Program-made: the position numbers and the translations under genes
Part shown: in pieces, positions 2,674 to 59,310 of the stretch
How positions within the stretch are numbered: the first letter of the stretch is position 1
Layout: every line of letters begins with the position of its first letter
Assembly: GCF_004010195.1 (NCBI RefSeq)
Contig: NC_057718.1
Span: forward strand, 78,978,676 to 79,042,675
From: Chiloscyllium plagiosum
Taxonomy: Eukaryota
Length of the DNA: 64,000 nt
Direction of reading: 5' to 3'
The notes under the pieces: generated by a model
What the model was told of the DNA's origin: nothing
What the model saw: only the letters and a program-made list of their open reading frames with translations
Database searches by the model: none

Positions 2674-4503
2674 AACAGCTAACCCAATAATGCAACTTTA
2701 AAAAAAAGGATTTTGTGATTTACACATGAAAGAAGTGAAACTATCACTGTATTCTAACAGATGAAAGGCTGAACAGACAATCAATTCTTCAATGTATAAT
2801 TTCAGTTACATCACACTGCAAATTTTTGCTATAAATTCTGTGTTACGATCGAGCCCTCCACTATCACCTGATGAAGGAGCGTCGCTCCAAAATCTAGTGT
2901 TTCCAATTAAACCTGGTGTTGTGATTTTTAACCAAGAATATGGTTAGCACAGCAAGTATTGCAGATGCATTTCACAGGTTAGCATGTGAAGTATTATTAC
3001 GAATGACTAACTTCTTTCTGGATCACCTAAAATTGGAAGCGTGTGTGTGCATTCTTTTGAATTTATGATTGTTTTTATTTTGTCTGAATTTCCTCATCAA
3101 CTGTAATAAATTTTTAAGATGGTACTTTGTTCCGATATATCATAACTAACTTTGAGTCTACTCCAGGTGCACAACTGGCCAGTCAAAAGTCTTAATTCGT
3201 CTGTTTCTACCTTGCTGATGCAGCATTCACTTTCTGAGAGGACCTGGCCCTATTTATAAGAATGTGACTGATCTGTTCTGAGTAATATGGTCAATCCATG
3301 GTCACTGCAGATTTGCATGCTTGTTATCTGATGCTACATATTTAAATGCTTGACTACCAATCTTAACCATGTTACCTGTCACACTACCCAAGTTCTGAAG
3401 AACCACCCTATAGAAAATCAGTGATGTCAGTTATAAAGATGCCTGCCAGTTTCTCACTTTCATGCCAGTAAATCATTGTTCGATGTAGTGATCTGCAACC
3501 TACTTTCAGTAAGAGGGATATAACTGGGAAACACCATCCTGGGCCATTTTGGAAGTTCAAAGATTCAGCTTTTAAACCACTAAAGTAGTCTCATTTTTTG
3601 CTTTGTATTGCCATGCATGATGAGTAAGTCGATCAAACTGGATGAACCGAATAGTTTTGATAAGAACTCATTAACTTGTAATAATCTTGAGGCAAAAGTG
3701 AGAATTGGAAAAGGTGTGAGGAACAGCTCAAAATAGATGCTGTAAGTATAACAGATACAGTAATGAATCCAATGAACAATTCAAGAGATATCTTTGCTAA
3801 AAACTGTGGGATCAATATAAACTTCAATTGTATGATAGTAAATAGCATAGTTACGTTTAAAGGAAAACAGATTAAAATACATGAAGGAGAAAGGAGTAGA
3901 AGAATATAACTGGGTGAGTTAGATGAAATTTAGTGTGAAGATGTTCATTGCTATAGATTAGCTTGGTCTAATAGCCTTCTGTACTCTAAATTCTATATTT
4001 TACAAATATTCTTTTCAGAACCGCATACTTGTCTACTGGAAACTTGTCTGTCTTAGTTTCTGTTTTGTGGTATGTTGAATGTACGCTTGTAGCAATGTGG
4101 AAAATCTACTTGCCTTGCATTCCTCCCCTAAATGGTTTGTACATTATTACAACAGTAGGGAGTGACCATCGTCTTCATTACGTAGAGCAGAATTTAATTA
4201 AAGAAAATAATGCTTATCCACTCTAACCTAAACCATCAAGCTGTAGGGGGGGGGGCATGCATTTTAAAACAAAAGTCAGTTAAGTTAATAGGTTTTGCTA
4301 ACTAGTAAGTAAGGACTGATAGTGTTGTATTTGCAGTAAACCTAGTGAGTAAATTTAATTTGCACATGTCTGTAAAGCTAGATTTGAGAAACCTAAACAG
4401 TAATTATCCTGATCTTTGAAGATGTCTAGACGAAAAGTGTGTTTGGTTGCATTTAGGAGTTTGAGGCCATGTTTACTCCTAGCTACCATTTTAAATTAGT
4501 GAA

Positions 4504-4674
4504 ATTCTGGATTAGTGGTGCTGGAAGAGCACAGCAGTGCAGGCAGCATCCGAGGAGCAGTAAAATCGACGTCTATTTTACTGCTCCTCGGATGCTGCCT
4601 GCACTGCTGTGCTCTTCCAGCACCACTAATCCAGAATCTGGTTTCCAGCATCTGCAGTCATTGTTTTTACCTAT
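4504..4674 (+). mobile_element. Penelope pLTR-derived fold-back mini-element (family B) containing a 134-bp near-perfect palindrome
   Basis: 4504-4637 is palindromic about 4570/4571 with one mismatch. 12-bp TSD attagtgaaatt at 4495-4506 and 4675-4686. Confidence 0.85.
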
Positions 4675-6104
4675 ATTAGTGAAATTGTTTAGAATTTTCA
4701 AATAATCTGACAAGGCAATGAAGTTTGTTGTGTCAGGCTTTACATGTGTTGAATTGAGCTTATGATATGTAAACATTCTATTTTAGATGAAAAAGACGAA
4801 TTAACTTATTTGGTGATGGCTGGCTATAACTTGACATACACGTAGCAAACTAGCCAAGATTGTGCTGGCTTTGGTGCAGTGATACCGCTTTTTTGCCCAA
4901 GTTAAAGGGTTGTGAGTTGAAGTCCTAATCCAGAACTTGAGCACATTGTCCCAAATTGTCACATCAGTATGGGAAACCACATTACTTCCCAATCAATTTC
5001 TCACTATGATTCCATTTCAAGGCTTGAAAATTGTTGTAAACCCTCTAAACTGAAAGTGTGGGGACTTGTTGGAGAGGAGGGACAGCTGTTCTTAATGTCC
5101 GAGATTCCACTATGGTCATTGCTGCCTCAGCTTGCGACCCCATTTGGGGTTCTGATTGCTGAGTTTGGGAAGTTCTGTATTACATTAACAGGAATGTCAA
5201 GGTTTGGAGGAGTTGAATCAACGCTCCACCTGTCCTTTTCGTTGTTTGTAAAGGATTCCATGGTAATCTTACAAGAGACCACATGCATTTGCTTTTGGAC
5301 TGTTGATCAAAGCTGAGGAAAATAGCTTTTAAAAGGGAGAATGTGCAAGGGGTTGTTTGCTTCACTTGCTTTCTCAAGTTGCAGTCTGATGTATATGCAT
5401 CAGTGTTGTGTTTTCAGGACATTGAGTCCAAATTGGCACCAGCTGGTGTGCGTTCAGGAGAACTCCGTCTAATGACAGCCCTCTGGTTCAACTGCAGACA
5501 TTGAGAGAGAAATGCAATTAAAAGCAAAGAGAATCCTACAGAAGTTGGCTGTCGCAAGTCTCTGTCTCCTCCTCTATAAAGTAATTCTTTCCAATTCTTT
5601 GTTGAAACAACAGGAAAACTCCTTTCTGAATAATTCTAAAACCTAAAGGAAAAGAGAAGACCCTGGGTCCAATCTGTTACTCAGTGAAGACTAGTCTTTG
5701 ATGTGGTGATAACATTGTATAAACATCAAAGAATTGAAAAGATTGTGGGGGAAATAAAAATCCAATATTGTGATTTGGATTGGTGATACAGAAAGATTTC
5801 TCTGACTTTTGTTTTTCCTTTCCTTCCATCTGTAATGTTTGTCTCTTTTACTGTTTCTCTTTGTGTGGAGAAGGGAATTTAAAAGGGTAAAATTTAAGTT
5901 GTACAATCATAAATTAGCAATTTTTTCTTGTGTTTTTTATCATTGGCTCAAGAAATCAGTTTGGTTGCAATAAATATTTATTTATTTTCTTAGTAATGCT
6001 AAAATCCAGTGCGTGTTTCTTTCAACCTGAATGAGTTGAGTGAATTGGGCATTTTGGTAGTATGACTGCATTTGCACATTTGTAGCAACTCTGAGAACAG
6101 TAAT

Positions 6105-11629: not shown

Positions 11630-14600
11630 TATGTGTCGATATAGTTCAAAAAGGGCTGCCATATTTTGTAGAATAATTCACCTTTTTTTTTGGTGCACCA
11701 TATTTGTGAGGAAGTCAAGGGGGGATATATTCCATGATTAACCTGTGCCTGTTCGAAAGTCCTGGAAGGCCTTCAGCTGCCCAATTCACTAAAATATTTT
11801 TCCTTGCACAAAAGGAGAAAATGGAAAATAGTTTCCTCCCATGCACGTCCAGGGAGGGAAAATCTGAAAAGCCCAAGAGCAGAGATGCTGGATCCAATCT
11901 AATCTCCGTTCCCAAGATCTCTGTCAAGGCATTCACTATTCTGTCCCAATACCTGCGGATCTTATGGCATGTCCATAGACAAAGCATGAGAGTGCCAACT
12001 ACTATTTTGCATTTAGGACACATTGGGGATGCTTCTACCTTAAATTTTGCGAGTCATTCAGGTGCTATATGAGCCCCGTGGAATATCTTTAATTGAATAG
12101 CTTGAGTTCTACTACAAATAGAGATCATTTTGGTGTTTCCCCTGATGTCCTCCCATGTTTCTGAAGAGATTTCTAACCCCAGTTCTTGGTTCCATGTTTT
12201 AAATAATCGTTCCATGTCTTTTCGATACCTCATTAAATAATGAATGATAAAGAGTACTGACCGAGGGCGGCTCCCTCGGCCATAGCACTCTTCTCTCCCT
12301 ATCTGATTTGTAGGGATTGCCTATTGGTGTGGTCTTATGTATATAATCTCGTATTTGAAAATACTGAAAAAGGTCCCTGTTAGGCAGTCCAAACTTCTGG
12401 TGCAACTGCTCAGAAGACATCATAACCTCCCCATCGAACAGGTCCCCCAAGCAGGAGATACCTCTGGACTTCCAAGTTTTAAATGTGGCATCCGTCAGCC
12501 CTGGCTGAAATCCCAATGCTTCCACGATAGGAGTATAAGGGGAGGTTTTTTGCAGGTTACCCTCATCTTGTCGCATTATCCTCCAGGCTTAAATTTTATT
12601 TAATACAATAGGGTTTTTGCAATAGTCCATAATAGCTCTCATCCTATCCATAAATAAAAGATTGATGGGGGGACACTTTGCTTGGGAGGTCTTAATATCT
12701 AACCAAATTGATTGGGTCTCTTGTGACCCACAGTCAGCTACATAAGATAATAAAGAGCTCAACTGATACCTCCTAAAGTCTGGAAAGTCCAGTCCTCCCC
12801 TTGCCTTTCTAATTTGATAAGGGGCCGTCTATGATTCAGATAAAGGAACCAAGCCAGCCGTGGAGCTTACAATGCCAGTCTCGGCAACATCAGAGGGAGC
12901 ATTCTCATAGGATATAGAAGACGAGGTAGAATATTCATTTTAACTAGGACTACTCTGCCTAACCAGGATATTGGGAGATCTCCCCAGCGTTTAAGGTACT
13001 ACCTTATTTTCTCTAATAGGTGCACAAAGTTGGCTTTATACAGCTGACCAAATACTGGGGTGATAAAAATACCCAAGTATAGGAAACCTTCCAGTGACCA
13101 CTGAAAGGGAAAGCAAGATCCGTCTGGTAAGTTGGATATACTGGCGAGACCACCCAATGGCATAGCCTCAGATTTCATAAAATTGATTTTATAGCCTGAG
13201 AACATACTAAATAGATTGACCACTTGAATTAGGTGGGGCATGGATATCAAAGTTGAAAAATGTGGTGCTGGAAAAACACAGCAGGCCAGGCAGCATCTGA
13301 GGAGCATAAGCCCTTCTTCATGGATATCAAAGGATCACTTAAGAAAAGGAGGACATCATCTGCATAGAGAGTAATTTTATATTTACCCGAACCAACCCTC
13401 GGAGCCGCTATGTTAGAGTCAGTTCGTATAGCTTTCACTAGTGGTTTGATTACTCGTGTGAATGATAATGGTGAGAGAGGACATCCCTACCTACACTGAA
13501 GCTATCCGAACCTAAACCATTGGTGACTGAAGCTGCTTTGGGGTCATTGTATAGTACTGAGACCCATTTGAAAAATACCTCTCCAACACCGAACCTTTCC
13601 AGTGCATAAAAAAAAATGGCCATTCTACCCGAACCAATGCCTTCTCTGCGTCCAAGGAGACAACTAACCCTGGTATTATTCCCTGATGACAGGCTTGTAT
13701 CATGTTTAAGACCCTTCTGATATTATTAGTTGATCTGCGGCCCTTAATAAACCCTGTCTGGTTCTCTTTTATGATGTATGGTAAGACCCTCTCCAAACTT
13801 AATGCTGACATTTTAGAAGGAATTTTAAAATCCACATTTAGCAAGGATATTGGCCTGTGCGATGAACAGTCTTCTGGAGCGTTTCCTTTTTTAAAAACGA
13901 GAGAGATATTTGCTTCCCTCAACGAAGGCTGAAGGTAGCTCTGACTATGTGAGTAATTATACATATTTATGAGTGGTCCAGCCAGGTCCCCTATAAATTT
14001 TTTATAAAACTCGACCTGGAATCCGTCTGATACAGGCGTTTTGCCACTCTGAAGCTGTCTAATTGCGTCGAGTACTTCCTGGGTTGTCAGGGGGGCATTC
14101 AAGATCGACACCTGCTCAGAGGTTAAGCCCGGAAAGGCCAAGTCTTTAAAGAAGGACTCCATCTTCTCAGTTCTATCCCCTCAGTCCTGCGATTTATACA
14201 GTTAAAAATAGAACTTTCTAAAGGCTGTATTGATCTTTTTACGATCACAGGTTAAAGTACCAGCACTTTCTCTAATGGATGTAATAGCTTGAGGAGCCTT
14301 TTTTATTCCCTAGCAAAGTATGCTAGGTATCTTAGACTTGTCACCATATTCATATAATCTCTGCTTTGCGAATAATATTTCCCTCTTTGCTCAAGGCTGC
14401 CCTAAGGGCTGTGATCCTTTATAGCTCAGTAATAGAGGGCCTATCAACATACGTTGTCTGAGCTGTCTTCAATCAAGCCTCGAGCCAGCACTTTTGTCTT
14501 TTCTGGGTCGCAGAATATGAGATGACCAAACCTCGCGTATAAGCCTTAATGGTCTCCCACATCGTCAACAGGTTACTGGCCGTACATGAGTTAATTTCCA

Positions 14601-15502
14601 AAAAGGTTTTGAATTCCTGAGAAAAATATTTTATAAATTTGCTATCCTTCAATAAGAAAGAATCCATACCCCAATGTTGGGGGGCCTGACCCATCGTCCC
14701 TAGTCTTGACTTCCATATATACTGTGTCATGATCAGAAATAGCTGTATTACCTATTTTACAAGATAATATGGAATTCAAAAGGGTCAAGGGAGCAAAGAA
14801 CATATCAATTCTGGCATGGCACTTGTGTGGGCTAGAGTAGAAAGTAAAGTCTCTACCCTGGGGGTGAAGGCACCCCCACACATCATCTAGCCATAGCTCC
14901 TTTTTCAGATCCGCCAGTTGTCTAGATCTAAGAGATATACCCATAGTGCTCTTAGGTGTTCTATCTGTCTCTGGGTCCATAACACAGTTAAAACCTCCTC
15001 CCATAATTGTATGGTGGACCCCAAAAGCCATCAACTTAGAGAACTCTTCCGTTACAAATTTAAACGGGTGCGCCCGTGGAGGGGGGGGGGGGGGTGCAAT
15101 AAAGATTCAAAATTCCATATTTCTCTCCATATATTAGGGCTTTGATCAGTATATACAGTCCAGACTCATCTTTTATCTGGCTCAACATTTGGAAAGGAAA
15201 ATTCTTCCGAATGAGAATGACTACTCCCCTACTTTTCGAACTGAAAGATGAGAAAAAAGCCTGATCAAATCTGCCCTGTTGTAGCTTTAAGTGCTCTTTG
15301 TCAAGTAGATGTGTCTCCTGTAAGAGATTAGTTAGTCATTTTAAACTGTCCAAGTTTGATGTAAAATGACTGACTACGCTAGGCAAAAGCTATCTTAAAT
15401 GATTTAAAGGGTGTGGTGAAGACGAGTGCCCCACTTTGCCTGAGTCTTAGGCAGAGCGCGACAGACTCAGACTTGCTGGATCGCTGCCATCTTGAAACCC
15501 CC
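11630..15502 (-). mobile_element. L1-clade LINE: decayed ORF2 (APE endonuclease, RT, Cys-rich end) with retained 5' end, ORF1 absent
   Basis: Motifs LQETHL, GGGFNCVMDP, ARIDMFF, ISDHD, RPISLLNVDFKI, SLDAEKA, LYADDVLLF, CPKC...LWTC. 5' end gggggtttcaagatggcagc. Confidence 0.9.
13253..13318 (-). mobile_element. 66-bp Penelope pLTR fragment (family B) inserted in L1 RT
   Basis: 14-bp direct repeat catggatatcaaag at 13239-13252 and 13319-13332. Confidence 0.8.
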
Positions 15503-16180: not shown

Positions 16181-17165
16181 TTGTCTCTATGTCTGGGATT
16201 GGGGTTCTAGACTTGGTTTCCATTACTCCATCCTCTGTAAACTTCAGTTTATTTAAATCTGCTTATTGTGTTACACCCAAGACCATGTCATGCTCCTCAG
16301 TAACTACTTTTCCTGCTGATCTGGATTGGCTTTCAATTGTCCATACCTCAAATTTAAAATCCTCAATCCTCTCTTTAATGGATTTTTTCTCATCTTGCAG
16401 CAGCACAGAATTGCAGTGGATAAGCATCAATGAGTAAGGCCATTTGGCTGTATCACTGCACACCGGTGATTTGTGATCTCCAGAGCCTCTCCTTACACTC
16501 CCTAATCTAAGATGTTATCTGAATAATCTCCTATTCCTTCTACCTCATGAATTGAAGGGAAACCTTGGATGCTACGTAAACTGCAGTAAAAAGATTGAAT
16601 TTCCAAGACCAATTTTTTTCCTTATGGCAGAACTCATAGTTGACTTTAGTATGGATTTTGTGTCTAAGTGAAATTGTAGGAAAACAGTTGTGCTGGAATT
16701 AAATTAGAAAAAGCTAAATAATTCACTAATCGTTATATTACATGACCGCAGATACCATTATTATAATGCATGGAGTGCAATTTATGACGAAACATAGAAG
16801 ATAGGAACAGGAATAGGTCATTTGTCCCTTTGAACCTGCTCCATCATTGAAAATGATGTAGCTGATCATCTAACTCAGTAAGCTGTTCCTGCTTTCTCCC
16901 CATATTCTTTGATATCTTTAGCCCTAAGAACTATATCTGATTCCTTCTTGAAAAAATTCAATGTTTTTATCTCAGCAGCTTTCTGTGGAAGAGAATTCCA
17001 CAGGCTTACCATTCTCTGGGTGAACAAATTTCTCCTGATCTGTGTCTTGAATGGCCTACCCCATATCCTAAAACTGTGACACCTAATTGTGGACTCCCCA
17101 GTAATTGGAATAATCTACCCTGTATTTTCCCAGTCTTGTCCTGTTAGAATCCTTCCACTGATGAG

Positions 17166-17355
17166 ATTAAAAATCTCTCAACACCAGGATATAATCCAAC
17201 AGGTTTATTTGGAAGCTCTAGCTTTCGGAATACCTGATGAAGGAGCAGCGCTCTGAAAGCTAGTGCTTCCAAATAAATCTGTTGGACTATAACCTGGTGT
17301 TGTGAGATTCTTAACTTTGTACACCCCAGTCCAACACTGGCATCTCCAAATCATG
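17166..17355 (+). mobile_element. Penelope pLTR fold-back mini-element (family A)
   Basis: 17166-17229 is an inverted copy of ~17252-17313; flanked by tccactgat(g/a)ag duplication. Confidence 0.85.
17231..17265 (+). ncRNA. Minimal type I hammerhead ribozyme, apparently intact
   Basis: tac-CTGATGA-a-ggagc-agc-gctct-GAAA-gcta-gtg: stem I tac/gtg, stem II ggagc/gctct, palindromic AGCT stem III. Confidence 0.7.
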
Positions 17356-18959
17356 TCCACTGATAAGGAGCGCATCCAAATCAAAAGCTGCATCCGATAC
17401 TCCACTAGTCTCACCAAGGCCCCATACAGTTGCAGAAGGACATCCTTGCTCCTGTATTAGAATCTTCTCTCTGAGGGCAGGCATACCATTTGCCGCCTTC
17501 ACTGTCTGCTGCACCAAATGTTTACTTTATTTCTGGTGTAGGAGGGCATCTAGGTCAAGTTGCAACTCATACTTTCTTAATCTGTTGCCATTCAGATAGT
17601 CTGTCTCCTGTTTTTGCTACCAAAGTCGATAACTTCATATATTTCATCTACCATACATTTGCCCACTTAACTTGTCCAAATCACACTGAAGCATCTCTGC
17701 TCTTCCACGCAGCACATCTTCCAACCCATCTTTGTGTAATTTGCAAACTTGGGGGTATTACATTTAGCTCCCTAATCTGAATTATTTTGTATATCTTAGG
17801 AATAGCTGGGGTCCAAGTGCTGATCCCTGTGGTACCCCACTGGTCGCTGTCTGCCACTAGGAAAAAGACCCATTTATTCCAATTCTTTGTTTCCAGTTGC
17901 CAACCTGTTCTCTATCCATATTGGTAACTACCCCCAATTCTGTGCACTTTTATATGCAAATCTCGTGTGTGCGATCTTACTGAAAGCCTGTTGAAAGTTC
18001 AAGGAAAACGCACCAACTGGTTCTCCCTTGTCAGCTATCAAAAAATGTTGTAGATTTGTCAAGCATGATTTCACTTTCGCAAGTCTGTCCAATCCTGTCA
18101 CTGTTCCAAGTGTTTTGCTATTAAATCTCATCCTTTCTCGCATTTTCCCCACTGATGATGTTAGGCGAACTGGTCTGTAATTCACTGTTTTCTCTCTTAC
18201 TCCTTTTTTAAAATAGTGGAGTTTAATTAGCAACCTTCCAACCAGCAGGAACTCTTCCAGGGTCTATAGAATCATGAAAATGGCTGCCAATGTGTCCACT
18301 ATATCTAGGATACTTCTTTGAGTACTCTGGAATTTAGATAATTAGACCCAGGGATTTATTTGCTTTTAATCCCATAATTTCCTCAAGAGCATCTTCCTAT
18401 TAAAATTGATTTTCTTCAGTTCCTTCCTCTCACTGGACCTTGTATTCCCCAACATTTTGTGATGTTACTTGTGTCCTCCTTGAAGACAGAACCAAAGTAT
18501 GTATTTAATTGATTTGCTGTCTTCCCTTTATAACATCTCTATTTCTGACTAAGGAAGCTATCTATAGAAAGTTTTTTTGTAATCATTTGTACCCTGAAAG
18601 CTTTCTCTCATGCTCTATTTCTCCTCCTTTCTTAATCGCTTTGCCCTCCTTTGCTGAAATCTAAACTTCGCCCAATTGTCAGGTTAGCTACTTTCCTTTA
18701 CGCTAATATGTATGCTCCTTCCTTGTATCTAATACTGCACCTAATTTCTCATGTTAGCGATAGTCAGACCATCTTTTCTTTTTCTTTTATACTGGACAGG
18801 AGAGAACAATTTTTGTAGTCCATCCATGTGCTCTTTAAATGTTTACCATTGCCTAGCCACTTCATCTCTTGGCGTAATGTTCCCCAATTTATCGTAGCTC
18901 GCTCCTCATTGTTTAAACTCTTATGCTATGATTGGGTTGGCTTTGCAGACCAGCATGTG

Positions 18960-19298: not shown

Positions 19299-19621
19299 AA
19301 ATTAGCCATAACAGTTCATTGTGAAATCCTTCAAAATCATATTGATCAGAATATGAATCACTGAACCATTCGCTCATGTATAACATTGAAGATGACAAGG
19401 AAAGTTGGTATACATCGTTTATTGGTAGTTTGGTATTGTTGTTCTGCAGATAATTGTCCTCTGTACCGTCAGACACATTTTAGATTATACTTTTGAAGAT
19501 ATGGAATCAAATTAGTTCCACATAAGACTGTCCATCTATTTCTTCCACAGTTGACCAAAAATAAAGCATTAGGTGTAACATTTGGATTTTCAGCATGTAT
19601 TTGATTAGGTACCACAAGTGG

Positions 19622-20208
19622 GAGAAGGTGAGGACTGCGGATGCTGGAAATCAGAGTTGAAGAGTGTGATGCTGGAAAAACACAGCCGGTCAGGCAGCAT
19701 CTGAGGCGCAGGAGAATCGATGTTTCGGGCATAAGCCCTTCATCAGGAATGAGGCTTGTGGCCCATGGAGGCTGAGAGGTAAATGGGGAGAGGGGTGCTG
19801 GGAATGTGATAGGTAGATGAAGTTGGGGGTGAAGGTGATAGGTCGGAGAAGAGGGTGGAGCAGATAGGTCAGATGGGAAGATGGGAAAGAAGATGGACAG
19901 GTCAAGAGGGCGGTGCTGAGTTGGAGGGTTGGATCTGGGATAAGATGGGAGAGGAAATGAGGAACCTGGTGAAATCCACATTGATCCCGTGTGGTTGGAG
20001 GGTCTCAAGGCGGAAGATAAAGCATTCTTTTTCTCTGTGTAGGGTGGTAAAGGTTTGGCAGTAGAGGAGGCCCAGAACTTGTATGTCCTTGGTGGAGTGG
20101 GAGGGGGAGTTGAAGTGTTCAGCCATGGGGAAGTGGGGTTGTTTCGTGCTTGTGTCCCGGAGATGTTCTCTGAAATGTTCTGCAAGTTGGTGTCCTGTCT
20201 CCCCAATG
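19622..20208 (-). mobile_element. Penelope-like element 3' part (family B): GIY-YIG-region C-terminus plus pLTR with hammerhead
   Basis: AEHFNSPSHS...IFRLETLQPHGINVDF; minus-strand CTGATGA agggcttatgccc GAAA catc at ~19718-19748. Confidence 0.85.
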
Positions 20209-20214
20209 TAACAG

Positions 20215-20440
20215 GTATGGGAGATGAGGAATTTCTTTATTTGAGGAGACTGGATCTGTGGATTTCTTTACTGCAGAGGACTGTCGAGATTGATTTATTA
20301 AGTAGATTCAAGTCAGAGATTTTTAATCAAGGGTATGGAAAAAAAGGCATAGGAGTAGGTGTGAAGGTGATCTGATCAACTATGATTTCATTTAATGGTG
20401 GAGCAGACTTTATGGGCTGAATAGCCTACTTCTATATCTT
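20215..20440 (+). mobile_element. CR1 3' end fragment
   Basis: Similar to the 7860-8100 3' region. Confidence 0.7.
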
Positions 20441-20559
20441 ATCCCCTACCTCTTCTGAGATGTGTAGTGGGGTGTCACTGGATTCCCTATAGTTACAACT
20501 ATAGGGAGTTGAGGGTGGGCTAACGATAGGAGAGCTCACTGATTCCTGTGGTTGAAGTG

Positions 20560-22057: not shown

Positions 22058-23425
22058 CAATTTCACTCAGGAACAGGACATTGTTGTCGATGTGAATACT
22101 GAGTCACAATTAAGTAGAATGGATGGCTTTGAGGTATGTAGAGAAGAGGTGTTGGAAATTCTGGAAAGGGTGAAAATAGATAAGTCCCATGGGCCTGATG
22201 GCATTTATCCTAGGATTCTCTGGGAAGCAAGGGAGGAGATTGCAGAGCCATTGGCCTTGATTTTTATGTCCTCATTGTCTACCTACAGGAGTAGTGCCAG
22301 AAGATAGGAGGCTAGCAAATGTGGTTCCCTTGTTCAAGAAGGGGAGTAGGGATAACCCTAGTAACTATAGGCCGGTGAGTCTCACTTCTGTTGTGGGCAA
22401 AGTCTTAGAGAGAATTGTAAGGGATAGGATTTATGAACATCTGGATAGGAATAATGTGATCAAGGATAGTCAGCAAGGTTTTGTGAAGGGCANNNNNNNN
22501 NNNNNNNNNNNNNNNNNNNNNNNNNNNNNNNNNNNNNNNNNNNNNNNNNNNNNNNNNNNNNNNNNNNNNNNNNNNNNNNNNNNNNNNNNNNNNNNNNNNN
22601 NNNNNNNNNNNNNNNNNNNNNNNNNNNNNNNNNNNNNNNNNNNNNNNNNNNNNNNNNNNNNNNNNNNNNNNNNNNNNNNNNNNNNNNNNNNNNNNNNNNN
22701 NNNNNNNNNNNNNNNNNNNNNNNNNNNNNNNNNNNNNNNNNNNNNNNNNNNNNNNNNNNNNNNNNNNNNNNNNNNNNNNNNNNNNNNNNNNNNNNNNNNN
22801 NNNNNNNNNNNNNNNNNNNNNNNNNNNNNNNNNNNNNNNNNNNNNNNNNNNNNNNNNNNNNNNNNNNNNNNNNNNNNNNNNNNNNNNNNNNNNNNNNNNN
22901 NNNNNNNNNNNNNNNNNNNNNNNNNNNNNNNNNNNNNNNNNNNNNNNNNNNNNNNNNNNNNNNNNNNNNNNNNNNNNNNNNNNNNNNNNNNNNNNNNNNN
23001 NNNNNNNNNNNNNNNNNNNNNNNNNNNNNNNNNNNNNNNNNNNNNNNNNNNNNNNNNNNNNNNNNNNNNNNNNNNNNNNNNNNNNNNNNNNNNNNNNNNN
23101 NNNNNNNNNNNNNNNNNNNNNNNNNNNNNNNNNNNNNNNNNNNNNNNNNNNNNNNNNNNNNNNNNNNNNNNNNNNNNNNNNNNNNNNNNNNNNNNNNNNN
23201 NNNNNNNNNNNNNNNNNNNNNNNNNNNNNNNNNNNNNCTCAGCGAGTCGTGAGTTCATGGAATGCCCTGCCAGTAGCAGTGGTGGACTCTCCCTCATTAT
23301 GGGCATTTAAGCGGGCATTGGATAGGCATATGGAGGATAGTGGGGTAGTGTAGGTTAGGTGGGCTTGGATCGGCGCAACATCGAGGGCCAAAGGGCCTGT
23401 ACTGCGCTGTATTCTTCTATGTTCT
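22058..23425 (+). mobile_element. CR1 LINE, 5'-truncated, spanning a gap
   Basis: KSHGPDGIYPRIL and NYRPVSLTSVVGKVLE motifs; (ttctatg)n tail; 8-bp TSD atgaagtt at 22050-57 and 23426-33. Confidence 0.9.
22493..23237. other. Assembly gap (N run)
   Basis: Run of N. Confidence 1.
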
Positions 23426-37047: not shown

Positions 37048-37067
37048 CATTGGTATACTTTTAGTGA

Positions 37068-39110
37068 GATTTGAGAAGATTTACAGCTCAGGTTGAGGTT
37101 CTGGATGTAAGTTTGCTCGCTGAGCTAGAAGGTTTGTTTTCAGACGTTTCATCAACATACTAGGTAACTTAATCAGTGAGCATTTGGTGAAGCACTGGTG
37201 ATATGGCCCGCTTTTTATTTACGTGTGTAGGTGTCTTTGGGTTGGTGATATCATTTCCTATGGTGATGTTATTTCCTGTTCTTTTTCTTGGGGGTGATAA
37301 ATGGGATTCAAGTCAATGTGTTTGTTGATAGAGGTCCGGTTGGAATGCCATGTTTCTAGGAATACTCATGCGTGCCTCTGTTTGGCTTGTCCTAGGATAG
37401 ATGTGTTGTCTCAATCAAAGTGACGTCCTTCCTCACCTGTATGTAAAGATACTAGTGAGAGTGGCTCATGTCTTTTTGTGGCTAGTTGATGTTCATGTAT
37501 CCTGGTGACTAGTTTTCTGCCTGTTTGTCCAGTGTAGTGTTTGTTACGGTTCGTGGAAGGTATTTTGTAAATGACATTAGTTTTGCTTGTTGTCTGTATA
37601 GGGTCTTTCCAGTCCATTAGCTGCTGTTTTAGTTTGTTGGTGGGTTTGTGCCAAGAAGTCTTGAAGTCTGGCAATCATTTCTGAGATGTCTTTGATGTAG
37701 GGGAGTGTGGTTAAGGTTTCTGGACTAGTTTTGTCTGTTTGTTCGTGTTTGTTGCTGAGAAATTGGTGGACTGTGTTCATTGGGTACCCGTTCTTTTTGA
37801 ATACATGGTATAGATGACTTTTCTCTGTTCTTTGTAGTTCCTCTGCTGCAGTATGTGCAGATATTGGAATGATTGCTTCTGTAGTTCAGTGTTTGGTCCG
37901 TATCTTTTGTTTTCCTCTAGATGCTGGTTTGAAGTTCTCCATGGCTGTTTGCTTTACTGCGACATCTAGGAATGGCAGTTTGTTGTTTTCCTCTTCTTTA
38001 GTGAATTTTATGCCAGTTGATGGTCTTGAACGTTTCCTCTAATTTGTTTCATTTAGTGATGATAGAGGTGTCATCCACGCAGCAGACCCAAAGTTTGGGT
38101 TGAATGGTTGGCAGAGCTGTTTGCTCAAGTTTCTGCATTACTGCCTCTGCTAAGAGCCCTGATATCGGAGATCCTTTAGGTGTTCAGTTGACTTGTCTGT
38201 AGGTTCTGTTGTTGAAAGTGAAGCGGGTGGTAAGGCATAGGTCCACTAGCTTGACGGTATTCTCCTTGCAGATGAAGTTGATGGTGATTGGTGTATGTGC
38301 CTTTGGTTCTTCTATTACTGTAGTCAGTGTTTCCTTGGTTAGGTTGATGTTGCTGGATGTGAATAGGGCTGTTACATCAAAGCAGACCATTATTTCATCC
38401 TCTTCTATCTTGGTGTCTTTGGTCTTCAGGAAAATCACCTATACAGTGTATTCAAAAAGAACGAGTACCCAATGAACAATCTGCCAATTTCTCAGCAACA
38501 AACACACAAAACTCACCCAGAAACCCTAGCCACTCTCCCCTACATCAAAGACATCTCGGAAATGATTGTCAGACTACTCAGACCGCTTGGCACAAACCCA
38601 CCAACAGCTAATGAACTTGAAAGACCCTATACAGACAACAAGCAAAATTAATGTCATTTACAAAATACCTTGCAAGAACCGTAACACAAACTACATTTGA
38701 CAAACAGGCAGAAAACTAGCCACCAGGATATATGAACATCAATTAGCCACAGAAAGGCATGATCCATTCTCACTAGTATCTTTACATACAGATGAGCAAG
38801 AACACCACTTTGACTGGGACAACACATCCATCCTAGGGAGACACGCACGAGAATTCCTAGAAGCATGGCATTCCAACCGGACCCCTCTCTGGAAACAAAT
38901 TGACTTGAATCCCATTTACTATCCCTGAGAAAAAGGACAGGAAATAACATCACCACAGGAAATGACATCACCAACCCAAGGAAACCTAAACACAATTATA
39001 AAAAGTGAGCCATAACATCAGTACTTTACCGGAGGCTCTCTGATGATACCTAGTATGGTGACGAAACGTTCGAAAGCAAACCTTCCACCTCAGTGAGCAA
39101 ATTTACATCT
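37068..39110. mobile_element. Penelope-like element (family C), large inverted structure: RT and GIY-YIG on minus (to ~38430), 3' part repeated on plus
   Basis: MVCFDVTALFTS, WV(C)(C)VDD, NVIYKIP...YTGQTGRKLVTRIHEH; hammerhead-like ends at ~37140-37178 (-) and 39040-39072 (+). Confidence 0.9.
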
Positions 39111-56739: not shown

Positions 56740-57389
56740 TTTAGAGAAGAATTAGAGCTCAGGTTGTGGATCAAGTTGTCAGTTTGTTCGCTGAACTGGT
56801 GGGTTTATTTTCAGATGTTTCATCACTATACTAAGTAACATCTAGTGATCCAAGCTTCTAGTGAAGCATTAGTGTTCGGTCCTGCTTTTGCTGTGTCTTA
56901 GTTTGTTGTGGTGTGTGATATAATTTCTGGTTCTGTTCCTCAGAAGTTGGTAAATGCAGTCCAAATCTGTGTGTGTTAATGAGTTGCGGTTTCTATGCCA
57001 CACATTTAAGAATTCCTGCGCATGTCTTTGTTTGGCCCGCCTCGGGGTGGATGCATTCTCCTGGTCGAACTGGTGACCATCTTCACAGACAAAGAGGGAC
57101 ACCAGTTCGACTGGGACAGGCCAAACAAAGACATGCGAGGGAATTCCTAGAGGCCTGGCATTCAAACTGGAACTCCATTAACAAGCACACAGATTTGAAC
57201 GGCATTTGCCAACTTATGAGAAACAACTGGAAATTACATCTCGCACCACAACAGACCAAGACACACACACAGCAAGCGGGACTGAACACCAACGCTTCAC
57301 CGGAGGCTCACTGATGATGTTGTTACCTAGCATAGTGATGAAATATCTGAAAACAAACCCACCAGCTGAACGAGCAAACTCCCAACCTG
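56740..57389. mobile_element. Penelope (family C) fold-back with ~300-bp arms
   Basis: AKQRHA(Q/R)EFLxxWH encoded on both strands; hammerhead-like CTGATGA...GAAA at 57311-57343; pivot near 57083. Confidence 0.85.
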
Positions 57390-59310
57390 TTAGAAGAGAA
57401 TTTGTGGGATGTGGTGCTCCCATGTAAATTGCATGCCAACTGATTTGGAGCTAGAACTGTCAGCTGCATCAAAATCTTAGGTGTGTTTCTAATAGCTCTG
57501 CGAGTGTACACATGCCATGTGGCCTCTGGCTCACTGCCACCTAAATCAAGGGCAATAAATTCTGGCCTTGCTCATCCCAAGCGCAGACTTTGAAGAAACA
57601 AAATCTTTTAGTTGTTTTAAGTTTATGACATGTTCAGTTTTATGCTTTTTATTACCCAGAATCAGAGGACAGAGCTGATGCATGACATTTTTTAATGCAG
57701 TTACGTTATGATTTGGAATACATTGTCTGAAAGTGGGATGGAAGCAGATTGAGTGGTAACTTTGGAGAAGGGGCAGAGGAATTAAATTGGGTATTATTCC
57801 AAAGAGCCAGCAAAGTTCCAATGCACTGAATGGCTTTCCATATACTATGATTCCATGATGTCCTTTATAGCTGCTTATTGCAAACTCTTGATCTCTATAG
57901 TAGTAATAAGTAAATGGCTCATTGTAGAGGTATGTATGACTCCACCTTGGTAAGATAAACAGAGCTAACATATGGCAGCAGACTTGATATTTTTGCGTTG
58001 GATCCATTTGTCCAGTTTCTTTTTGGGCAGTAATGTTCCGTTAGGATTGCAAATACATAGTTGTCCAAGTTAGTCCTTTTAAAAAAAATCAAGTAGGACT
58101 TTTGTAAAACCAGTGCCATAAGACACACTAGTTTGTCTAAAATTAATGGTTATTGAATTTATAGTTAAAACGCTCTGTCCCCTCAAGTGAAGGTAACCTT
58201 TACCATAGCTAATTCATAAATTAATCGTGCCTATTTCTGTTGTATGGTTAGCCATTTTAAACTTTGTGAAAGAGTTTTTGCCTTGGATTTCATATTTTTA
58301 TATTTTATTGCTTGCACTTTTAAATGACGTGAAAGCAAAGACGAAATAGCAAAACAATTTGAGCTTTGTTGCAGTTTGTGTTATCAAAACTTGTACTGGT
58401 TTTAGATGGATGAAAACTCAGCTGCAACTTTCTTGGCCCTTCCCTTATTTAAAATCTACCCTGATGAATAGCAGGAATTGTGCTCTGATGGTTCAATAAT
58501 TTCTTTTTGTAGCAGTTTCAGTTGACTTGTTGGCTATAGTGTTGTAGTAATTCTGCGCTCTCAATGAAATTAATTATTCAAGTTCATGCCGCAGGCTGAT
58601 TAAGTATTTTCCACTGTTGGTTTTATAATTAAGTAACATATCATCAAAGCTTTTACGTTAATGTGATTCAGCCTTATTTGAAGGTGAGTTGAGTGCAAAT
58701 TTCTGTTTTATGATGCTACCCAATACTCATTCCATAGACTGTCAGCCTTTGGCTCTGGTGACCAAAGGAAAACATATTTTGTTATGGGAACTGAATTAAA
58801 AAATGAAATATGTTTATTTCTTGCATGATTGCTGTTCTTTTTATAGTTTAGTGATGTGGTTAATTATGGCTTCAACATTAACCAATTATTAAAGTTAAGC
58901 AAATATTTTATATTGCTTCTATTAATTTGATATTTATTGATATTGTTAGAACTAATCAGGTTGCGTATTTTACTATTGACAGTTTCAGGTCTGACTAAAT
59001 ATATCCCTGCTTTAGCATTCCAAATGTGCCCATTTGCCTCTACTTACAATTTAAAGTTTTCATTTTGATATATAATATATAGCTATTAAATATTATAATC
59101 CCAGTTTGGAAAATATTGGGCAAACCTGATATTTTTAAAAATCTGGTTGTTAGACCATAAACCACGTCAAGAATACAAAGTGTGGAATATTCCTAGAGTA
59201 CTGACCTTTGACAATGTTGGAAATGAAGTCCCTTTAAAAATTGACCAGAGCGCACACTAGAGATAATGGAGAGCCGTTGATGCTCATTGGAACATACATT
59301 TAGGGGCTGG

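Follow-up and report, generated by a model that had tools for sequence, protein, structure and literature searches.

Features of the locus

The window analysed here is the whole stretch of 64,000 nt from Chiloscyllium plagiosum (contig NC_057718.1), and it holds at 4504-4637 a spacerless palindrome of 134 bp. Two mirror arms of 67 nt each (4504-4570 and 4571-4637) adjoin with 0 nt between them and pair at 66 of 67 bases, the sole mismatch being C4567 against T4574. The centre reads GAC/GTC, with the axis between 4570 and 4571; the two 67-bp arms, the one mismatch and this centre had been described in an initial annotation and were reproduced here.

The left, inverted arm (4504-4570, minus strand) corresponds to the end of a Penelope-like element (PLE) pLTR lacking its tail, as placed by self-alignment and by flank-to-arm contigs in three sequencing runs (X3, X5 and X14). 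The right, direct arm (4571-4637, plus strand) corresponds to the pLTR from hammerhead stem III to its short end, as placed by self-alignment and family alignment. The word ACGT at 4569-4572 is common to both arms and represents a loopless palindromic stem III. The insert is asymmetric, in that the right arm extends 34-37 nt further as family sequence before the target-site duplication is reached; this one-sided tail occupies 4638-4671 on the plus strand (34 nt, or 37 nt when taken to 4674, where it meets the 12-bp duplication) and corresponds to the stretch of family sequence that separates the short 3' end from the long one. The insert is therefore built of pieces of 67 and about 101 nt, the whole being the spacerless 134-bp palindrome plus the tail.

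Folding of the hairpin gave a z-score of -19.8, with 0 of 200 shuffled sequences equally stable, which rules out a chance palindrome. No other palindrome with arms longer than 13 nt and a loop of at most 4 nt was found in the 64-kb window; a smaller one, with 13-nt arms and a 2-nt loop, lies at 20482-20508, upstream of the related element copy at 19.6 kb. The palindrome is present once in the window, and a MITE-like repetition of the same centre would need many copies. An origin as a DNA transposon was rejected, because the inverted repeat ends 34 nt before one end of the insert and the sequence is that of a PLE end. The insertion contains neither a catalytic core nor a reading frame and retains stem III, C17 and the 3' strand of stem I; with only these parts kept, the palindrome cannot be a ribozyme, and the insertion product is probably a neutral remnant.

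The insert is flanked by a target-site duplication. Its left copy (4495-4506, plus strand) matches 4675-4686 exactly, in agreement with the 12-bp duplication reported initially, and a 12-bp direct repeat pair was met by chance in 7 of 20,000 random 180-nt spans of the window. The left copy overlaps the inverted arm by ATT (4504-4506), a 3-nt microhomology. The right copy was placed at 4672-4686 (plus strand), of which 4675-4686 is exact within the window and 4672-4686 was compared with the left side in a second species (organism B, run X14); there, one contig carries 7 extra bases behind 4494, ending in TAT, a match to 4672-4674. Provided that the right copy of organism B matches that of the window, the duplication was probably 15 bp long originally and was followed by a 7-bp loss in the C. 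plagiosum lineage. The duplications of sister copies measure 14 and 14 bp.

Source family of the arms

The arms are the pLTR end of a very common, hammerhead-bearing Penelope-like family (family B), of which six other pieces lie in the window, at 11.5, 13.2, 19.6, 37.0, 41.4 and 61.5 kb. The reference among these sister copies (19620-20231, minus strand) comprises a C-terminal GIY-YIG frame, the 3' region, a minimal hammerhead with C3 at 19746, the pLTR end and the tail. For its frame (19950-20231) GIY-YIG clusters were obtained in Atlas at 0.95, and 65-67% identity was found to two Chiloscyllium punctatum proteins. The C. punctatum protein P0004 shows RVT_1 (E 0.008) and then GIY-YIG (E 0.00025), both below the Pfam cut-offs. 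Pfam gave no match to the window fragment 19950-20231 by itself, and a PDB sequence search with this frame returned nothing under E 0.1. The source family thus presents a reverse transcriptase and then a C-terminal GIY-YIG domain upstream of the pLTR, the order of an EN+ PLE.

Of the 86 bases aligned between the 19.6-kb copy and arm plus tail, 71 are identical; judged by sequence, the palindrome's element is a distinct subfamily relative to that copy. In the pLTR of the family-B copies of the window lies a minimal type I hammerhead (CTGAnGA, stem II, GAAAC-GTC type), a putative ribozyme recognised by its motif. Over the window, Rfam at the gathering threshold gave 0 hits and ARAGORN 0. A 20-nt family pattern had 0 matches in viral contigs, and its 6 matches in metagenome contigs were unrelated and due to chance. 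The GIY-YIG sister copy, together with loose contig ends that run into the hammerhead, bears out the earlier attribution of the arms to the family-B pLTR of a hammerhead-bearing Penelope element.

In the alignment, the outer end of the inverted arm coincides to about 4 columns with the ends of the two direct copies that lack a tail (at 13.2 and 37 kb), and the direct arm with its tail ends at 4671-4673, the family's long 3' end. The interval between these two family 3' ends, 30-40 nt apart, is the PLE tail. An inverted, 5'-truncated copy stands head to head with a direct copy, and a one-sided 30-40-bp tail and a target-site duplication complete the arrangement of a PLE complex insertion.

The 13.2-kb copy (13239-13332), a family-B stump that has a 14-bp duplication and has lost 21 nt internally, lies inside a decayed LINE (about 12200-15300) with reverse transcriptase and endonuclease Pfam matches at 13515-14180 and 14645-15106.

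Independent contigs and reads

Four of 24 listed runs were compared, namely the three DNA runs and one single-cell polyA RNA run. The left junction, between unique flank and inverted arm, is spanned by contigs in X3 (4389-4527), X5 (4389-4523) and X14 (4411-4528), and the right junction, between tail and flank, by contigs in X3 (4650-4808) and X14 (4646-4808); loose ends leave for unique flanks behind 4671-4673 in all three DNA runs. Both outer junctions occur in X3 and X14, which shows that the inverted insertion is genuine and that it predates the separation of the two species. The initial annotation had proposed a check for the empty site in related sharks; it was sought in one relative (X14), and the insertion was present there. 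The unique flanks of the two species differ by 6 substitutions in 281 nt, roughly 2%, with which one arm difference in 67 nt is consistent (P = 0.58), so later homogenisation of the arms is not required.

No contig crossing the centre of the palindrome was found among the 24 pieces listed (63,449 further), so that the spacerless centre is supplied by the window's assembly. The inverted insertion might then be real and its spacerless centre an assembly collapse of a longer inverted repeat, in keeping with a gapped assembly (N runs at 1759-2673 and 22493-23237) and with best runs that contain 0.86-0.90 of the sampled words, not all. We regard such a collapse as most improbable, because a mismatch 3 nt from the axis is unexpected in a collapsed repeat and the outer junctions are confirmed in independent samples.

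About 2% of the single-cell polyA run was sampled and yielded 1,160 family reads, all partial fits. In this sample RNA depth in the unique flanks was zero, except for 0.07 in the bin beside the left arm, and no reads were assignable to the palindrome locus in this one shallow RNA run. The initial annotation had suggested that a transcript would form a long hairpin and serve as an siRNA/miRNA or ADAR substrate; these reads speak neither for nor against such a role, and A-to-I edits in them are indistinguishable from differences among family copies. Of the 82 stop-to-stop frames of at least 90 aa, 50 were compared with Pfam; they contained no host exon, and matches were obtained in 3 of the 50, to LINE-type reverse transcriptase/endonuclease remnants only.

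Position of the axis relative to the hammerhead

In all four runs, the loose ends of contigs or reads behind 4572 continue into the reverse complement of the CTGATGA...GAA hammerhead core, which places the axis in the stem III ACGT. We take ACGT 4569-4572 to be hammerhead positions 15.1, 15.2, 16.2 and 16.1, with the axis between 15.2 and 16.2. Relative to C3 of CUGA, ACGT lies at +23 to +26, the axis at +24/+25 and the predicted cut at +27/+28, and from this distance to C3 the cleavage bond between C17 and N1.1 is predicted at 4573/4574 (plus strand). Position 4574 is both the N1.1 side of the predicted cut and the lone arm mismatch, with T where the left arm implies G. The axis lies 3 nt upstream of the predicted cut (after 4573); the initial annotation had put it next to the cleavage triplet, which holds for its location in the stem III ACGT but not for a coincidence with the cut itself. 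Passages of PMC4209133 give positions 15.2-16.2 as palindromic in minimal hammerheads, and describe stem III as palindromic for dimerisation.

Both arms reach +23 through the common ACGT, and the GTC upstream of the cut is present in each. A cleaved RNA would start at 4574, yet GTC stands in both arms, which calls for an uncleaved template; the centre of the palindrome was probably not determined by RNA cutting. Sister copies start, relative to C3, at -4 (11.5 kb), -3 (37 kb), -3 (41.4 kb), -8 or slightly further (61.5 kb), about -480 (19.6 kb) and about +1 to +3 by eye (13.2 kb, where the aligner gave +36 owing to the internal deletion); 0 of 6 start at the cut, and the cleavage-defined boundary of a retrozyme-like element is not seen.

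As a separate observation, truncations gather at the 5' edge of the core, some 30 nt upstream of the cut: five of the six sister copies (11628, 13319, 36956, 41403 and 61625) start about -8 to +3 of C3, and a family-A direct arm at 17232 starts at -2.

These positions bear on the proposal that ribozyme cleavage or a dimer interface sets an RNA end at which the cDNA folds back, so that ribozyme chemistry would set the pivots. An axis within stem III and 3 nt off the predicted cut is what such a process would favour, and a paired dimer helix could stall the enzyme there, but cleaved RNA would lack the GTC that both arms contain, and none of the six sister copies starts at the cut. No pile-up of molecule ends occurs in any of the four runs, contigs and 3'-biased reads being poorly suited to showing such ends. 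In the three DNA runs, depth at 4580 amounts to 3-6% of the sum of 4580 and its mirror 4561, which also speaks against pivots set by cleavage, as an upper bound on centre-crossing contigs in which depth is not copy number and with which an enrichment among fold-backs is still compatible; contigs past ACGT mostly run on into the hammerhead, and exact-centre copies are uncountable from these tables. Minimal hammerheads, moreover, cleave poorly in vitro according to passages of PMC4209133, and passages of PMC11167929 describe cleavage as dispensable for insertion. We consider it very unlikely that cleavage set the pivot. From the origin first suggested for the inversion, a fold-back or a joining during insertion is retained as likely, and the ribozyme-defined RNA end is given up in view of the GTC in both arms. 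The template switch at an RNA dimer interface, also suggested, was rejected, since reverse transcriptase switching between two RNAs has the wrong polarity and would be expected to give a direct, not an inverted, repeat.

Other inverted insertions and inter-arm joints

Four further inverted PLE insertions lie in the window, at 1.5-2.9, 17.2, 37-39 and 56.8 kb, none with an ACGT pivot. The arms of the 17.2-kb insertion reach +18 and -2, which puts its junction in the hammerhead but off stem III; the junction at 1.5-2.9 kb is at -80, and those at 37-39 and 56.8 kb are hundreds of bases upstream. Junctions inside the hammerhead are thus found in 2 of the 5 inverted PLE insertions of the window (4.5 and 17.2 kb), a point in favour of pivots set by cleavage.

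As to their structure, the insertion at 1432-2945 belongs to family A and has a 15-bp duplication (one mismatch), a left-side tail and a 915-base N gap in the middle of the insert. Another of family A, at 17154-17367, has a short inverted arm, a direct arm with tail and a 12-bp duplication with one mismatch. Those at 37065-39110 and 56770-57390 represent a third hammerhead-bearing family, with arms of about 720 and 300 nt that are 82% and 72% alike, and the former directly adjoins the 37-kb family-B copy.

Among the rows listed (13 of 15 rows, with 46 further, and 5 rows, with 35 further) there were 18 inter-arm joints, 17 of which are not ACGT-to-ACGT. In those 17, with 4571 as the origin of the count, the inverted arm can be aligned as far as +6 to +40 and the direct arm sets in at +18 to +80; some joints have inserted letters that extend an arm, once through the entire hammerhead, and some of those ending in the tail are possibly blurred by an internal repeat. 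In the remaining one of the 18 joints listed, a contig of organism A, both arms reach ACGT with 30 bases between them, and its direct arm, starting at ACGT, again favours a cleavage-set pivot. An exact ACGT pivot leaves no joint and pivots upstream fall mostly outside the reference, so the joint count is biased.

Two joints, 4532-to-4599 and 4537-to-4612, are covered by contigs to depths of 1,050 and 1,518, where the single-copy flanks reach about 10-12. Each occurs in one run, and they are possibly multi-copy inverted forms or library artefacts.

The contig of organism A with 30 bases between its arms would also suit a later collapse, by which longer arms with the hammerhead core were reduced to a perfect palindrome through a slippage deletion between two ACGT words, which form direct repeats since the word is palindromic, and family copies do usually reach the 5' edge of the hammerhead. 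Deletions at palindrome centres, though, mostly break symmetry and seldom restore it, and no longer-centred allele at the locus was found among the listed pieces of the three DNA runs, none of which covers the centre. Even with microhomology-mediated deletions being common in PLE copies (passages of PMC3846280), we hold a later collapse to be quite improbable.

Proposed insertion mechanism

The reading we favour, with a probability of roughly 0.55, is a short head-to-head insertion that arose from priming on both strands with uncleaved RNA as template, the two cDNAs being annealed through the stem III ACGT. The enzyme of the element would cut both target strands 14-15 bases apart, and uncleaved element RNA would be copied from each cut. 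One strand would be primed at the distal start (the tail end, about 4671); priming of the other, aided by ATT/AAT, would take place at the proximal start (about 4634-4637). Both cDNAs would run towards the hammerhead, the common stop of family-B copies, where their 3' ends would pair at ACGT and then be filled in. The ribozyme would act via its sequence, stem III being palindromic for dimerisation, and not via cleavage.

The short 3' end of the inverted arm and the tail end of the direct arm argue for two start sites. Further support for two joined cDNAs comes from the 14- and 14-bp duplications of the sister copies, and from the four insertions of the same architecture with other junctions together with the 17 of 18 joints that are not ACGT-to-ACGT. 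From the 5' edge of the hammerhead to the short end, the self-complementary 4-mers are ACGT, the overlapping TCGA and a TGCA that derives from a rare base, the upstream part having been inspected by eye in the consensus of loose ends. Since annealing without a spacer requires a self-complementary word, stem III would be near-forced once both cDNAs stop there.

The rare base, C4602 with its counterpart G4539, is common to both arms and, with the unlisted fourth letter included, accounts for 0.5-1.9% of family depth. It points to one source for both arms, and with one source the copying of one arm from the other, by fold-back or later conversion, fits no less well than a pair of cDNAs from a single locus. 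Twin priming in L1 uses one RNA, and two fully overlapping cDNAs need two templates, either two RNAs or tandem pLTRs, which counts against the joining of two cDNAs.

The rare base in both arms therefore also favours a fold-back of a single cDNA, in which a tail-primed cDNA would stop at ACGT, snap back or switch to its own strand, copy 67 nt and join the left target via ATT/AAT, with no ribozyme cleavage needed. Palindromes at inverted PLE junctions have been read as signs of self-priming (passages of PMC3846280), and self-annealing of small hairpins with 2-bp homology is linked to inverted duplications at L1-made ends in part of 10.1101/2024.12.14.628481. A fold-back nevertheless leaves unexplained that the inverted arm stops at the family's short end, a position to which 3 of 3 short ends keep with a spread of about 4 nt, and it would demand a loop of at most 2 nt at ACGT, whereas the predicted DNA fold, computed with the present mismatch, opens the central 8 nt. 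We judge this course of events possible but rather unlikely.

For the joining of two cDNAs at ACGT, the pivot evidence is n = 1, with a centre that is seen in no independent contig. It is doubtful that the palindromic stem III, which metazoan PLE hammerheads keep for dimerisation, doubles as an annealing site for the two nascent cDNAs in general, with spacerless fold-backs of the various PLE families pivoting there far more often than on other self-complementary words.

Significance and comparison with known systems

The palindrome is a new instance of an already described PLE insertion type, and the link of the ribozyme to its pivot is real but indirect, through the palindromic sequence of stem III. 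As a single locus, one remnant among about seven family pieces in the 64-kb window, it is of little weight; it offers a tidy in vivo trace of priming from two start sites and on both strands, as reported for the anole element, and it speaks for a template that passed the ribozyme cut site uncleaved. A genome-wide preference for stem III would weigh more, as it would bear on what the minimal hammerhead does and on how Penelope's inverted insertions arise. Were stem III the preferred joint, a poorly cleaving minimal hammerhead would gain a structural role in finishing insertion. In a search mainly of open-access main text, no paper was found that places PLE inversion pivots on stem III, and in the literature examined, including passages of PMC11167929, a cDNA joining step is shown for no PLE.

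The layout of inverted arm, direct arm, tail, duplication and palindromic junction is published for PLEs, in passages of PMC3846280, PMC8557442 and PMC11167929. An EN+ PLE insertion unit consists of a 5'-truncated copy, an adjoining inverted copy, a one-sided 30-40-bp tail and a duplication (passages of PMC3846280 and PMC8557442); an inverted pLTR with tail and duplication is given as typical in passages of PMC8557442, and in passages of PMC3846280 inverted junctions contain palindromes, for which self-priming was proposed. The present insertion resembles this unit in its head-to-head pLTR pieces, its tail on one side, its duplication and the palindrome at its junction, where those of Adineta measure 18 and 38 bp. 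It differs in that the pieces are cut to 67 and about 101 nt and that the junction lies on stem III, which is undiscussed in those passages.

According to passages of PMC11167929, the Poseidon protein of Anolis carolinensis, a predicted dimer that prefers ATT, cuts and extends both target strands in vitro and uses two reverse-transcription starts a 30-40-nt tail apart. For this PLE, the only one studied in vitro, the same passages report that ribozyme-dead mutants insert normally and that uncleaved RNA is the main substrate. The shark insertion shares with it two 3' ends a tail apart, an AT-rich target with ATT at the end of the duplication, and the retention of sequence upstream of the ribozyme cut, as would be expected of an uncleaved template. 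In contrast, passages of the in vitro paper contain neither inverted products nor cDNA joining, and the element here is of shark type.

The hammerhead of the family has the CUGAUGA core, the extra base before stem II, the GAAA and the palindromic 15.2-16.2 with no loop III that are known from minimal hammerheads, among which dual motifs on opposite strands 100-700 bp apart had already been noted. Unlike these, the palindrome is reduced to stem III with C17 and the stem I 3' strand.

The insertion is also like the 5' inversion of L1 by twin priming, in which both strands prime, microhomology occurs at the second primer and at the join, and the duplication is kept. It is unlike L1 in that the two halves of an L1 inversion come from one RNA and overlap little, whereas here the overlap is full, poly(A) is absent and the enzyme combines a reverse transcriptase with GIY-YIG.
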